Below are positions 29,582 to 40,728 of a stretch of 43,886 bases of DNA, one piece after another. Made by a program: the position numbers and the translations under genes. How positions within the stretch are numbered: the first letter of the stretch is position 1; the number at the start of each line of letters is the position of its first letter. Source of the DNA: Deltaproteobacteria bacterium. Lineage in GTDB: Bacteria; UBA10199; 2-02-FULL-50-16; JAJFLM01. The stretch lies in contig JAJFLM010000202.1 in assembly GCA_021772655.1 (NCBI GenBank), positions 1-43,886 on the forward strand, given 5' to 3'. The notes under the pieces are model-generated. The model saw nothing but the letters and a program-made list of their open reading frames with translations. It was not told the origin of the DNA and ran no database searches.

Positions 29582-29608
29582 GCAACTTTAGCCCTCCCAT
29601 GCCGAAGT
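29582..29608 (+). promoter_or_regulatory. Shared sigma-28-like promoter motif, copy before the methyltransferase
   Basis: GCAACTTTAGCCCTCCCAT-GCCGAAGT, 19 nt before the ATG. Confidence 0.7.
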
Positions 29609-29627
29609 CATCCCGCGGGTAATAATC

Positions 29628-31673
29628 ATGGCATGGTTCCAACTTCAAACAACAAACTTTAGTCTCATGACATCAGCACTCCAGGTTTATGGGCAAGCGC
29701 AACGAGTTGTCACTTCGACTCAAACCTTGGTCGCTGAAGTCAATAGCTTAACATCTGAAGGCACCGCTGCGGTGGCTCTGATTGGACAACCGGGAAGCCT
29801 AAGACATGCTCTATTTATGGCCGCCCAGGGACCCGTTCATCAACTGCGTCGCGAAGTCATTGCTCCCATCAGAGCCCAATGGGAACAGCATCCTTTTCAC
29901 GTGCAAGGGACGCTAACACGGTTCCCTCAACTGAAGCAGCACCCACAGTGGCCTGTTTTATTAGCTTTAGTCAGCAGTCTCACGGATATCAGCCCGGCAG
30001 GATTTCCGCGCATTACCGCACCGGCTTTTCAGCAATTTATTGATCACGTCCCACATTTATTTTCTCAGGGCAATGAACTCATCGGCTGGCTCGACCAATT
30101 GGAAAACATACTCCAACATCAGCAACCTTTTGATGAAAAAGTAACCCAGTCCGTACAACGTGCAAGCAAGGTACTGCGTACCATGATCTTTACTGCCAGT
30201 ATCACAGCGCCCCCTGATCTATGGCTGCTGCGCCAAGTACTGGCCACGTTCAAAGACCTAGATATTTTAGAAAGCATCAACGCTGGAAAACTGATTCATC
30301 CCGTATCTTATGCTGCTCAACATGGTCTGGATGCTAAGCAACTAAAAATTGATTTAGATTTTCTGTATGGACGAGGGTACCTCGATAAAACTCGCTATGA
30401 TTGTTATATAAAAACCTCTGGGCGAGCCGCCGAAGTTTTAGAGAAAGTGGATCACTTACCCTCTCAGTACCGTCGCAATATGACCGAAGAATTACTGCAA
30501 TGGTTCCAAGGCAAGCAAAGTGCTGAACGTCAAAACCTATTACAAAGCTGGTTTCAGCAGCGGCGTTATGATTCAGGGTCTCACTCCGGTTGGATTGCGA
30601 ACATGCGCGATATAGAAGACGGGTACCGCTTAACACCGCTTGTCTTGGCACTGAAAGCCACCCAACAATTAGAAGGTTTACAGCTTGGGCAAATTTTTCG
30701 CCCCACTCATTGGACTCCTGAAATGGCCGAATTATTTGACAGTACAGGACTCACCCATGAGGGTCGACTAACCGCATTAGGGCATCGCATGCTGAGCCGT
30801 GGTAGCGGACCGTTTGGTATTATTGAAACCTATCACCCTTATACCAATCGACACCATGCCTTACTACAGGCTGAGGTCGAAAAACCTCATGTTGTACGAG
30901 CTGCCAATATTGCTGCCAGTCGCGAAGCCAATCGCAAAACCTTCCGTACGGCCGTACAACAGCTCCATAAATTAGACTACCGTCCACGCGTGGTGATTGA
31001 ACATGCCTTAGGCTTAGGCGTTGCCATTCAGGAGTTTGTAAAAGTTTTTGGTGAAGAGGGCATTCAATTTGTGGGAGCTGATTATGAAAACACGGCATTA
31101 GATGGCGCCCGCGCTGTCCATCAAGCCGGTGAACTTCCTGCTAAAATGGATTTTTATCAAGCCGATATTGCCGACCCACAAGCCTTAATAGATCAAATGC
31201 GCGAGGATGGCATCGACCCTCGAGGCGCTGTCATGATTGTCGGCAATGGTTTTCATGAAGCTCGCAAAGATGATGAAGACTTTGTAAAGGTCATCCGCAC
31301 TTATGCTCTCGCCGGCATCATCCCCGTCTTTATCGAAGAGTCTGCGTTGACACCCAAACAACACCGTACAAGTGCTTGGAATACCTACAATAGTGCGTTT
31401 AATTGGGTCCACGAAGTCTCAGGGCAACGGCTCCGTGCTCCCTGGCCCTATGAACCACCGCACCATCGCTTAAGCTGGCAAGAAGCCCTGGAACAAGGTG
31501 GTTATAGCATCATTCACGAACTTTCTGTTAACACGCGGCCCATGCTGCCTTATGCAGCACCCCCGACTCAAAACCCACCGATTAGCCGCATCACTATTGC
31601 TGTTCCTACGGCTGCTCAAGGTGGTCCTAGTCTGACATTAATCACAAATTCTGAAGATACTCCGGCTGCTTAA
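29628..31673 (+). CDS. AprA-related class I SAM methyltransferase-like protein with ~180-aa N-terminal extension
   Basis: HVVRAANIAAS, VIEHALGLG (motif I variant), FVGADYENTAL, QADIADPQAL and GNGFHE resemble AprA-type methyltransferases (recalled by eye); winged-helix-like segment upstream. Confidence 0.65.
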   Translation: MAWFQLQTTNFSLMTSALQVYGQAQRVVTSTQTLVAEVNSLTSEGTAAVALIGQPGSLRHALFMAAQGPVHQLRREVIAPIRAQWEQHPFHVQGTLTRFPQLKQHPQWPVLLALVSSLTDISPAGFPRITAPAFQQFIDHVPHLFSQGNELIGWLDQLENILQHQQPFDEKVTQSVQRASKVLRTMIFTASITAPPDLWLLRQVLATFKDLDILESINAGKLIHPVSYAAQHGLDAKQLKIDLDFLYGRGYLDKTRYDCYIKTSGRAAEVLEKVDHLPSQYRRNMTEELLQWFQGKQSAERQNLLQSWFQQRRYDSGSHSGWIANMRDIEDGYRLTPLVLALKATQQLEGLQLGQIFRPTHWTPEMAELFDSTGLTHEGRLTALGHRMLSRGSGPFGIIETYHPYTNRHHALLQAEVEKPHVVRAANIAASREANRKTFRTAVQQLHKLDYRPRVVIEHALGLGVAIQEFVKVFGEEGIQFVGADYENTALDGARAVHQAGELPAKMDFYQADIADPQALIDQMREDGIDPRGAVMIVGNGFHEARKDDEDFVKVIRTYALAGIIPVFIEESALTPKQHRTSAWNTYNSAFNWVHEVSGQRLRAPWPYEPPHHRLSWQEALEQGGYSIIHELSVNTRPMLPYAAPPTQNPPISRITIAVPTAAQGGPSLTLITNSEDTPAA

Positions 31674-31679
31674 ATAAAT

Positions 31680-39463: not shown

Positions 39464-39534
39464 GTGTTTCCCCCTTCAACAGGTTGTTCTGTTGATCTCA
39501 CATAGCGGATAGAGTCCGTCAAGTATTGCGGGAC

Positions 39535-40692
39535 TTAGCTTCTATTGATGACGTAGAGTTGATGTAATAGGCAATTACGACTCATTAAAAAGTAAGGAAA
39601 ATTAGGCAAGGCACGCACCCATAATTGATTTGCATCACGGATATAATCACCATCTATTTGTACCGGGACTTCAATAGGGCTACTAGCCGTATCGACAAAT
39701 ACATAACGAATCTCTTCACCAACAGCCACCGCCGCTTGAAACTCAAGCGGCATCCGCGTCAACTGTTTGTCAGCAGCCAATAAACCAGGATTGCCTCTTA
39801 GGGCCCGCTTGGCTTGTTGGTTACACTCCGAGTACATCCGAACTAAACTCAACAAACTGCCATGAGGAAGCACCTTAGTGCCTAGACCAGCGAGCGGACG
39901 TCCTGGAAAACCAGTCACTCGATTGGCTAAAGGTGTCCCGTGGTTTAAAACTTCGCGGGCTAAGAATTCTTGTTGATCACCATTCGAGCGCGTCCACTGC
40001 ACCCCAAAATGTTTGGGTTGCAATACCATTCGTCTAAACCCAACCCAATTACGCTTCAAATGAACACTGCGTCCATGGCCCCCTTGAGTATCTTTAAATA
40101 AACCAGCAATAGCTTCACCCGCACTGACGTTATGAGAAAAAATCATCGTCTCTCCGGACCAAGGAAAATGTGCCGCCCCTAAATTGAGTGGGACTTCAAT
40201 AGCCGTCTTTAAATAATCAACGGCCACACGTTCATTCTTGGAGGGAGAACCAATCAACATCCCCAAGTCATTCACACTACCCATCGCAATCGCGCCAATG
40301 CGAATCCCGCCATCAATCATGCGATTGACAACTTGTTCCTCAGGTAAATTAAAAAGATCGGACTGACTTGAAAATAGAAAACTCAACGCACCCTGCATGG
40401 CTTGGCTAATCGTGCCATCACCACCAAAGGCAATCACGTCAAGAGTGTCGCCTGGGCGAGCCGCTCTAAACTGATCAATACGTTCTGCAATACGGCTCAC
40501 TGTGTTTGAAAAAGATACTTCTGTTTCCAAAGCCGGCAAGCTTTCCAGACCTTCAGACTGAGCTAAACTCAGCACACCGCTTGCCATTTGATGAGCCCGC
40601 CCCGCACCTGAAACTGGATTAACTACGGGTAATATTATTGAAGAGGCCGCCAATAGAGTAGGCGACAACATCCCATGCATCAAGACCGTCAT
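39535..40692 (-). CDS. Diacylglycerol/lipid kinase family protein (YegS/DgkB-like), divergent, with short N-terminal extension and insertions
   Basis: VVNPVSG, GGDGT, MGSVNDL, VQIDGD. Confidence 0.85.
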   Translation of the reverse strand: MTVLMHGMLSPTLLAASSIILPVVNPVSGAGRAHQMASGVLSLAQSEGLESLPALETEVSFSNTVSRIAERIDQFRAARPGDTLDVIAFGGDGTISQAMQGALSFLFSSQSDLFNLPEEQVVNRMIDGGIRIGAIAMGSVNDLGMLIGSPSKNERVAVDYLKTAIEVPLNLGAAHFPWSGETMIFSHNVSAGEAIAGLFKDTQGGHGRSVHLKRNWVGFRRMVLQPKHFGVQWTRSNGDQQEFLAREVLNHGTPLANRVTGFPGRPLAGLGTKVLPHGSLLSLVRMYSECNQQAKRALRGNPGLLAADKQLTRMPLEFQAAVAVGEEIRYVFVDTASSPIEVPVQIDGDYIRDANQLWVRALPNFPYFLMSRNCLLHQLYVINRS

Positions 40693-40701
40693 AACAGACT
40701 G

Positions 40702-40728
40702 TCATCGCCGGAGAGGCCATTTTGTTGC
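40702..40728 (-). promoter_or_regulatory. Shared sigma-28-like promoter motif, copy before the lipid kinase
   Basis: GCAACAAAATGGCCTCTCC-GGCGATGA, 9 nt before the ATG. Confidence 0.7.

Follow-up and report, generated by a model that had tools for sequence, protein, structure and literature searches.

The locus analysed here raises the question of which factor reads a motif that recurs before its genes. The window, meaning the whole stretch of DNA analysed, is 43,886 nt long and belongs to a UBA10199 genome (G000) which is 93% complete and 7.8% contaminated. A first-pass annotation had listed five copies of a variant sigma-28-type promoter. All five strings, in which 15 nt separate GCAA from the octamer, were found at their coordinates and strands, and their distances from the ATG (19, 7, 15, 9, and 23 nt) lie within the 7-23 nt claimed. 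Four of the five are strong (14.9-23.3 bits). The copy at 37528 on the plus strand is weak, with G at a position where C is 98% conserved, and does not stand as a good copy. The list was also incomplete, as a strong copy ending at 18705 on the minus strand had been overlooked. The copies are given below, each with two cross-validation scores from matrices trained without this contig (threshold 12 bits).

29582..29608, plus strand: putative promoter motif with a 15-nt spacer (GCAACTTT / GCCGAAGT), ATG 19 nt downstream, 19.8 and 19.2 bits
35713..35739, minus strand: putative promoter motif (GCAACTTT / CCCGATGA), putA ATG 7 nt downstream, 20.0 and 20.3 bits
37341..37367, minus strand: putative promoter motif (GCAACTTT / GTCGATGA), ATG 15 nt downstream, 21.9 and 23.3 bits
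40702..40728, minus strand: putative promoter motif (GCAACAAA / GGCGATGA), ATG 9 nt downstream, 16.9 and 14.9 bits
37528..37554, plus strand: weak, doubtful copy with GCAAG for GCAAC, ATG 23 nt downstream, 4.8 and 9.1 bits, below the threshold
18679..18705, minus strand: additional strong copy, uvrA start 67 nt downstream, 23.6 and 20.9 bits

Within the window, GCAA-N17-CGA was present in 6 of the 32 upstream 100-nt regions, whereas 5000 shuffles averaged 0.15 such regions and never exceeded 3. A leaderless start is predicted for putA at the 35739 copy.

Across the genome the consensus was (G/A)CAACTTT-N11-gcCGA(T/A)AA. Matches of at least 12 bits were found in 134 of 2140 upstream regions against 8.4 in shuffled sequence; the motif is real and extends well past the window. 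Held-out contigs gave 73 of 1155 regions compared to 3.4, and 63 of 1005 compared to 2.8. Tandem-gene gaps (n = 1055) contained 63 sense and 5 antisense matches, and the motif was present in 1 of 201 convergent gaps. CAAC and CGA were the most conserved positions. The -10 base frequencies were C 0.94, G 0.99, A 0.98, T 0.62, A 0.68, and A 0.59, and the leading -10 bases were weak (G 0.48, C 0.39). The sigma-28 -10 element GCCGATAA is contained in the genome-wide motif. The -10 had originally been read as CGATGA, which the genome-wide form gcCGA(T/A)AA replaces.

Upstream of genes GCAA..CGAT occurred 42 times at a spacer of 15 nt and 1-11 times at other spacers. With the sigma-28 -35, TAAA(G), the equivalent pattern TAAA..CGAT occurred 4 times upstream at a spacer of 15 compared to 3-7 times at the others. 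When GCAA..CGATGA was counted genome-wide without gene context there was little signal (24 compared to 9-19), its enrichment being visible only upstream of genes. The exact 15-nt spacing holds for the dominant class, with 125 upstream regions of at least 14 bits, but spacers of 16 nt (18 regions) and 17 nt (15 regions) also occur; the other spacers tested gave 1-5. The distance from octamer to ATG peaked at 7 nt (14/134) and 9 nt (13/134), with 0-2 cases at each offset from 0 to 4. A Shine-Dalgarno-like word was present in 5 of 46 short leaders compared to 57 of 84 long leaders. Judged from these sequence patterns, the repeated motif is very probably a promoter.

The only FliA-like sigma factor of G000 is encoded at C57:14956-15870, inside a non-flagellar type III secretion system (T3SS) cluster. 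Its top family was FliA/WhiG (TIGR02479) at 136.4 bits, below the cut-off of 189.6. SigD, sigma-28, and WhiG were the best matches in a fold search of its model, in which two helices were modelled at low confidence in the region-3 area. Equivalents of E. coli R58, T69, R74, R84, and R91 are retained, and the E. coli -10 contacts Q73, R94, R95, and R98 are altered. A FliA/WhiG-like sigma with altered region-4 specificity had been anticipated in the first-pass annotation, and inspection of region 4.2 agreed with this. The recognition helix reads LSKSWTSRLH, in place of the ESRVSQ of sigma-28 and WhiG proteins with solved structures. The base-reading Q228 of P. aeruginosa is replaced by Arg and R220 of E. 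coli by Trp.

The helix LSKSW(T/V)SR(L/I)H was conserved in 119 of 120 homologues. Stigmatella aurantiaca, Hyalangium minutum, and Myxococcales records are represented in the family with this SKSW helix. In the phylogenetic tree six canonical FliA sequences formed a separate branch (97/93), and the 28 SKSW sequences lay outside it as one group with weak support (63/88). For 28 family members Sigma70_r3 was absent among the Pfam matches listed (25 of 31 families). The SKSWTSRLH helix and the retained -10-reading arginines together fit a factor that reads a new -35 but a canonical -10. The SKSW sigma can be named with good confidence as the predicted reader of the motif, its SKSWTSR helix reading CAAC in place of TAAAG.

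Other sigma genes were considered. Those on contigs C75, C104, C263, C278, and C337 are probable contaminants by GC content (0.31, 0.51, 0.38, 0.58, and 0.57, respectively, compared to 0.46), C104 being the least certain. L045 was a chance match, and RpoH was rejected as the reader on its general consensus. Neither FlgM nor flagellin was found in the 93% complete G000. A 105-aa gene directly upstream of the sigma gene, considered as an anti-sigma candidate, had no PDB match and no Atlas match of at least 0.8.

The motif was found in all 93 of the 93 UBA10199 genomes, with 8-102 exact matches per genome. The phylum total was 3638 compared to 99 for the reversed pattern, and 3638 matches at 15 nt compare to 620 at +1. 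A sigma orthologue was present in 61 of 61 genomes. Co-occurrence of motif and sigma is thus total within the phylum, which offers no sigma-less genome by which to gauge dependence; the sole outside control, one unrelated 9.7-Mb high-GC genome, had one motif match. Flagellin was found in 7 of the 61 genomes, G000 not among them, and the GCAAC motif preceded none of the seven flagellin genes. These flagellated relatives encode a second FliA with ESR(V/I)SQIH (4 of 5 extracted), and their flagellar FliAs scored 215-231 bits against TIGR02479. A pattern drawn by eye from the seven flagellin regions, THAAGKTY-N11/12-TCCGTY, was near chance in the seven flagellated genomes (29 compared to 15 in the control) and had 6 matches in the non-flagellated G000; it is kept as a lead. 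The sigma gene in the T3SS cluster, the phylum-wide motif, and the longer-spacer class lay beyond the sight of the first-pass annotation.

The sigma locus contains the core export genes sctJ, L, N, O, Q, R, S, T, U, and V and no flagellin. In all 34 close loci the sigma gene adjoins sctJ, sctL, or sctN, as it does in 13 of the 17 distant loci that span at least 5 kb. In a set of 43 distant loci GCAAC..CGAT peaked at the same spacing (21, with 14 at +1 and 3-8 elsewhere), and in 13 of them it was located where the sigma gene ends. A needle-like gene has the motif upstream in 31 of 35 loci, compared to 0.8 expected, with a spacer of 16-17 nt. Its protein profile matched MxiH/PrgI (E 0.13-1.3) and, at E 0.00095, one 43-aa chain from a needle-chaperone complex. 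Its Atlas cluster was 11% T3SS_needle_F at 0.91, with recognition below threshold, and a fold search with a poor model (pLDDT 56) found nothing. These weak matches and synteny indicate a likely SctF needle. The motif also precedes adjacent secreted-protein genes in T3SS loci, and none was seen before core apparatus genes. An antisense match within sctN recurs in relatives and was read as coding constraint. No dedicated secretin SctC was found in G000, whose sole secretin lies inside a T2SS gsp cluster.

The genes behind the window copies, which form part of the candidate regulon, are as follows.

29628..31673, plus strand: candidate target of 681 aa, uncharged N-terminus, weak methyltransferase-like match (PF23525, E 3.9e-6)
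31680..35705, minus strand: candidate target PutA (proline dehydrogenase / aldehyde dehydrogenase), 1341 aa, about 125 residues ahead of PutA_N, LLAS at residue 17
35748..37325, minus strand: candidate target of 525 aa, no Pfam family, LLAS at residue 17
39535..40692, minus strand: candidate target of 385 aa, diacylglycerol-kinase domain (PF00781), LLAAS at residue 13
37578..38756, plus strand: gene after the weak copy, 392 aa, no Pfam family, uncertain regulon member
15774..18611, minus strand: uvrA, behind the 18705 copy, housekeeping gene with no leader

Positions 2-25 contained at most one charged residue in 81 of 131 targets compared to 201 of 3043 other proteins, and the word L[LF]A[SAGT] was present in 52 of 138 targets compared to 61 of 3043. 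The genes with a 15-nt spacer mostly have uncharged N-termini with frequent LLAS. No Pfam match at E 1e-5 was found for 59 of 88 targets scanned. The putA homologues in G001 and G031 are also preceded by the motif, as is a look-alike of the 40728-copy target in G002 (L301), 10 nt ahead of its ATG. The motif marks the likely needle gene and more than 100 other genes, many encoding candidate secreted proteins. Both uvrA and rpoH are also in the regulon, as are a biotin-synthase-like gene and Sec/lipoprotein genes, none of which can be T3SS cargo.

The explanation proposed is that the promoter is probably read by the divergent sigma-28-like factor from the non-flagellar T3SS cluster, as a FliA-like export switch. 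RNA polymerase with the C57 sigma would recognise (G/A)CAACTTT-N11-gcCGA(T/A)AA, and sigma region 2/3.0 would read the normal sigma-28 -10 box. Transcription would start about 8 nt past the octamer, in many cases on the ATG or directly beside it. The class with 16-17-nt spacers would serve the needle-like subunit and neighbouring secreted proteins, and the 15-nt class a large set with uncharged N-terminal leaders as candidate T3SS cargo. Some Sec-exported and housekeeping genes would also belong to the regulon. With a spacer of 17 nt a promoter departs from the main class by 2 nt, and a further factor may be required. On balance the sigma would act like FliA in the flagellar hierarchy, switching on exported proteins and not the export apparatus. 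A wider joint reading is held tentatively, at a little short of even confidence. In it an undescribed sigma-28 subfamily (SKSWxSRLH) would have stayed with an early-type injectisome after the split from the flagellum, keeping the ancestral switching of the filament subunit with a -35 orthogonal to that of flagellar FliA. It would be the UBA10199 master switch of at least 100 exported proteins including whole metabolic enzymes, with spacers of 17 and 15 nt sorting structural substrates from cargo.

The same promoter and sigma could instead control a general life-stage regulon as in the Bdellovibrio attack phase. The T3SS needle would then be a member among others, and the uncharged leaders, instead of being T3SS signals, would reflect another targeting route or lineage-specific extensions. 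The housekeeping and Sec-exported members are in keeping with this, as are the large metabolic enzymes among the targets (up to 2456 aa) and the lack of a T3SS secretin in G000. The LLAS word is not strictly conserved outside G000, its strict form being absent from all 24 targets that were read in the three nearest relatives. In the accessible part of the Bdellovibrio study a FliA motif was present in 92 of 140 attack-phase promoters (PMC3627812). However, the sigma remains within T3SS loci in distant lineages, and the motif precedes the needle-like and adjacent secreted genes. Among putA homologues with readable starts (a small sample), the motif is present before the three whose protein has an N-terminal leader and absent before the leaderless one. 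A life-stage regulon is judged unlikely, though a serious alternative to the export switch.

The usual geometry of ECF promoters is AAC-N16-CGA. An ECF sigma as the reader would account for CAAC and CGA being the most conserved positions; G000 has one native-looking ECF, and 13 of 28 SKSW-family members weakly matched Sigma70_ECF. It is nevertheless very improbable, as that ECF, the one ECF family searched, had matches in only 25 of the 61 genomes, many of them with 24-36% identity, whereas the motif is in all. The -10 also runs on as gcCGATAA, and the motif accompanies the SKSW sigma into distant loci. A bipartite transcription-factor site on RpoD promoters would tolerate spacers of 15-17 nt but is hardly credible given the strict orientation, the lack of a palindrome, the sigma-28 -10 box, and the ATGs at the predicted +1 without a Shine-Dalgarno sequence.

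The proposed SKSW sigma switch was compared to known systems as described in the accessible parts of the sources cited. It resembles E. coli and P. aeruginosa FliA in the -10 box GCCGATAA, the 11 nt from the extended -35 to the -10, the retained R74/R84/R91 equivalents, and the driving, here predicted, of a filament-type subunit belonging to a type III export system (bioRxiv 10.1101/2020.01.02.893370; PMC12784957). It differs in having (G/A)CAAC for the -35 TAAAG and SKSWTSR for the helix ESRVSQ, in its place in a non-flagellar T3SS cluster of a genome where no flagellin or FlgM was found, and in its approximately 130 targets and 16-17-nt spacer class. The HrpL promoter box serves to find effectors. 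HrpL / ECF32 is likewise a T3SS-encoded alternative sigma that activates its genes (bioRxiv 10.1101/2019.12.11.873521). HrpL is an ECF, whereas the SKSW sigma is nearest to FliA/WhiG by sequence and fold, with a sigma-28 -10, and its motif was not seen before core apparatus genes. Bdellovibrio attack-phase FliA is also a sigma-28 with a large regulon and many non-flagellar genes, but there the -35 is TTAAG and the factor is the flagellar FliA, compared to a separate paralogue with a changed -35 and a T3SS locus here (PMC3627812).

The 'Myxo' T3SS also lacks a dedicated secretin, and the SKSW family has Myxococcales members; SctF was not found in the Myxo systems, and 'FliA' and 'sigma' are not mentioned in the accessible part of that source, whereas the T3SS described here has an embedded sigma together with a divergent SctF-like gene (PMC3459982). 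Chlamydia likewise retains sigma-28 in a non-flagellated T3SS-bearing lineage, but its regulon, in the accessible text, is hctB and tsp only, with no T3SS genes (PMC12282069). Literature searches, with most subscription papers and the supplements outside their reach, found nothing joining UBA10199 with type III secretion or on secretion in the phylum, and nothing on a T3SS-embedded FliA-like sigma, of which an earlier mention is possible.

With the motif as a rule, co-regulated and probably secreted proteins can be listed from sequence in the 93 uncultured genomes. The motif also bears on the origin of the injectisome from the flagellum because the link from sigma-28 to filament appears to persist in a secretin-less T3SS. 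Two sigma-28 paralogues with different recognition helices in one genome form a natural pair for relating region 4.2 to -35 specificity, and the presence of the SKSW family in cultured myxobacteria makes the system testable now. If the joint reading is true, the promoter would reveal which proteins an entire uncultured phylum secretes, and would point to a hidden needle gene in related secretin-less systems.

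Across the 3.67-Mb genome containing the window (G000; 3818 genes predicted with our own gene caller), intergenic upstream matches to GCAA..CGA numbered 80 at a spacer of 15 nt and 6-21 elsewhere between 11 and 20 nt. With TAAA in place of GCAA there was no spacing peak upstream of genes. Refining a matrix on 2140 upstream regions yielded the consensus (G/A)CAACTTT-N11-gcCGA(T/A)AA. Upstream matches exceeded those in shuffled sequence (134 of 2140 regions at 12 bits or more compared to 8.4), as the first-pass annotation required of its variant sigma-28-type promoter. With the matrix trained on half of the contigs and the window always excluded, the held-out halves gave 73 of 1155 upstream regions compared to 3.4 and 63 of 1005 compared to 2.8. 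Tandem-gene gaps (n = 1055) contained 63 sense and 5 antisense matches, and convergent gaps one in 201.

All five strings annotated in the window were present, ending 19, 7, 15, 9 and 23 nt before the ATG, in agreement with the 7-23 nt claimed. With matrices trained without the window four of them scored 14.9-23.3 bits; that at 37528 scored just 4.8 and 9.1 bits. A further copy at 18705, absent from that annotation, scored 20.9 and 23.6 bits with the half-contig matrices; this copy (18679-18705) lies before uvrA. GCAA-N17-CGA occurred in 6 of 32 upstream regions of the window compared to 0.15 in shuffles. Elsewhere in the window, a phosphoglucomutase/phosphomannomutase gene (20143-21552, minus strand) is interrupted near 20638 by one in-frame stop, through either pseudogene formation or an assembly error. 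A DUF2204/DUF6036 nucleotidyltransferase with an overlapping small gene upstream (14785-15667, minus strand) looks like a toxin-antitoxin-type pair. A 339-amino acid protein with a low-complexity N-terminus (27634-28653, plus strand) had neither a Pfam family nor an upstream motif.

The box GCCGATAA of P. aeruginosa fliC is described as covering -15 to -8 (PMC12784957), so +1 is the eighth base past the box. ATG distances from the octamer peaked at 7 and 9 nt (14 and 13 of 134 sites), while offsets 0-4 held 0-2. A Shine-Dalgarno-like word was found before 5 of 46 genes with a leader of 11 nt or less compared to 57 of 84 with 18 nt or more. The ATG peaks and this scarcity in short leaders fit predicted leaderless transcripts. 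That the motif is a promoter is strongly supported.

Nine region-2 matches were found in G000: RpoD, RpoH, one ECF, five probable contaminants and one FliA/WhiG-like gene. The largest contig, C263 (119.6 kb, GC 0.38), bears a divergent sigma and deviates in GC; it is possibly phage or contaminant. The FliA/WhiG-like sigma (C57:14956-15870) matched its family at 136 bits, under the cut-off. Its gene sits between sctJ and sctL-N-O-P-Q-R-S-T with sctV nearby; sctU is on a separate contig. Flagellin and FlgM were searched for in G000 and not found, and its sole secretin belongs to a T2SS cluster. An orthologue of the sigma was present in 61/61 genomes, compared to flagellin in 7 and the G000-type ECF in 25. 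There is strong support for this sigma as the reader of the motif. Strong copies (18-23 bits) lie about 130-220 nt upstream of the sigma gene in five loci, facing away with no clear ORF behind, and may serve antisense feedback or drive a small RNA:
L018:9549, minus strand, away-facing copy
L022:630, minus strand, away-facing copy
L025:9871, minus strand, away-facing copy
L027:8420, minus strand, away-facing copy
L031:5709, minus strand, away-facing copy
No anti-sigma was identified for this sigma. Directly upstream of it is a small fast-evolving gene with a helical C-terminus (C57:14468-14785; L170:5469-5786), for which no known match was found; it is a candidate anti-sigma.

The sigma was aligned to solved structures and residue numbering was transferred by us. 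The positions matching E. coli R58, T69, R74 and R84, residues in contact with the -10 (bioRxiv 10.1101/2020.01.02.893370), are unchanged, and so is R91/P. aeruginosa R97, a reader of the extended -10 (PMC12784957). It differs at the Q73, R94, R95 and R98 positions. Region 4, suspected at first pass of altered specificity, retains P. aeruginosa S224 and has E. coli K208 replaced by Glu and R220 by Trp. Base-reading P. aeruginosa Q228 is replaced by Arg, and the 4.2 helix is LSKSW(T/V)SR(L/I)H. This helix was found in 119 of 120 homologues, and 121 of 150 distant representatives have a W..R.H form; the 30 looked up included an Acidobacteriota record, Eisenbacteria, Myxococcales, Hyalangium minutum and Stigmatella aurantiaca. 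In a 44-row tree six canonical FliAs formed a separate branch (97/93), outside which the SKSW rows were weakly grouped (63/88). The top fold matches were SigD, sigma-28 and WhiG, and no region-3 Pfam match was among those listed. The motif works like a sigma-28 promoter, but the sigma did not qualify as FliA by -35, helix, score or context.

A second FliA, scoring above the cut-off, is encoded by five flagellated relatives, and all four extracted flagellar FliAs contain the helix ESR(V/I)SQIH. The GCAAC motif preceded flagellin in none of seven upstream regions (best 5.0 bits). All seven contained a TAAAG-like word then TCCGT, spotted by eye and unconfirmed genome-wide:
L096, L099, L100 and L102-L105, T(A/C/T)AAG..-N11/12-TCCGT, 55-85 nt before flagellin
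Region 2.4 of this flagellar FliA is altered (AECRIRGQ). Preference may have shifted at the -10 in the flagellar paralogue and at the -35 in the T3SS paralogue.

The relatives of the sigma are labeled UBA10199 or unplaced Deltaproteobacteria. The exact pattern RCAACHTT-N13-CGAWA was present in 93/93 phylum genomes (8-102 copies, median 38), totaling 3638 matches compared to 99 for the reversed control, although related genomes are not independent. One added spacer base gave 620. Of 583 metagenome loci 80 were retained, 43 of them distant (36-44% identity). The sigma adjoins sctJ, L or N in 13 of 17 distant loci of at least 5 kb. GCAAC..CGAT peaked at the same spacing in the 43 distant loci (21, with 14 at +1 and 3-8 elsewhere); TAAAG, GCAAG and GGAAC gave no such peak. 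In 13 distant loci, including two near-duplicate pairs, the motif is at the sigma-gene end, aimed at the next gene. The motif accompanies the sigma beyond the phylum.

The motif was looked for before core T3SS apparatus genes and none was seen. It precedes a 173-amino acid gene with a small ORF on one side and a TPR chaperone on the other. The protein's C-terminus is weakly similar to needle proteins; a fold search gave no match. Forty-two needle-position ORFs were found, of which two were excluded as another gene and five as cut by contig ends. The motif (at least 12 bits) preceded 31 of the remaining 35, compared to 0.8 expected, in 27/27 close and 4/8 distant loci, with spacers of 17 (25), 16 (4) and 15 nt (2). 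Another operon, which encodes two TPR proteins, was present in 41/41 genomes and has a 17-nt site in G000; 20 regions of relatives gave 16 sense 17-nt matches, two within sctN, and one antisense. By a rough regex, lipoprotein signals followed 6 of 13 copies with spacer 17 compared to 2 of 123 with spacer 15 in G000:
C85, C370:5534, C210, C79:14750, C315, C84:10729 and C201:5793, 17-nt-spacer copies enriched before lipoprotein-type genes

At most one charged residue at positions 2-25 was found in 81 of 131 targets compared to 201 of 3043 other G000 proteins. L[LF]A[SAGT] near residue 13-19 occurred in 52 of 138 compared to 61 of 3043, and at an internal control window in one of 138. By rough regex this leader followed 46 of 123 copies with spacer 15 and 0 of 30 with 16-17. 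Of the approximately 134 targets 88 were scanned against Pfam and 59 had no family. Matched targets included pyruvate dehydrogenase E1, phosphofructokinase, malic enzyme, a 2456-amino acid carboxylase, a fatty-acid-synthase-like protein, and Ser/Thr kinase, RelA/SpoT, GNAT and subtilase domains. Several are longer than in-genome paralogues by extensions. Three leader- and motif-bearing enzymes could form a pyruvate-to-fatty-acid path (C390:7633-15003, C5:508-7782 and C84:4382-7348, jointly):
giant carboxylase fused to biotin ligase, 2456 aa
fatty-acid-synthase-like protein, 2425 aa
pyruvate dehydrogenase E1
Eight motif-bearing genes lie on one contig (C425:5309-33532); among them are genes for thrombospondin-repeat proteins and for a paralogous family that matched nothing in Pfam. 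None of 24 targets from the three nearest relatives had strict LLAS; looser forms (LMAS, LAAT, VLAA) occurred in two of these relatives. Export of leader-bearing proteins by the T3SS is suggested less firmly than the promoter and its reader. The lack of strict LLAS in these relatives and the presence of uvrA, rpoH and Sec-signal genes among the targets argue against a cargo role.

No earlier description of the motif or sigma subfamily was found in the main texts searched. The role resembles that of HrpL, but HrpL is an ECF (bioRxiv 10.1101/2019.12.11.873521); regulon size is similar to the Bdellovibrio FliA regulon (PMC3627812), and Chlamydia sigma-28 is described as binding hctB and tsp only (PMC12282069). 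Abby and Rocha placed secretin-less Myxo systems as basal among injectisomes, with no SctF and, in the available text, no mention of a sigma (PMC3459982). The available text of a 2025 predation review does not mention 'sigma' or 'FliA' (PMC12428579).

A late-gene switch following the flagellar plan is most likely. The T3SS apparatus and the sigma would be produced first, and the sigma would then transcribe the filament subunit, adjacent secreted proteins and cargo. rpoH (C370:8831-9694) has a motif with a 16-nt spacer (14.9 bits). The motif before rpoH and uvrA would tie stress genes to the regulon.
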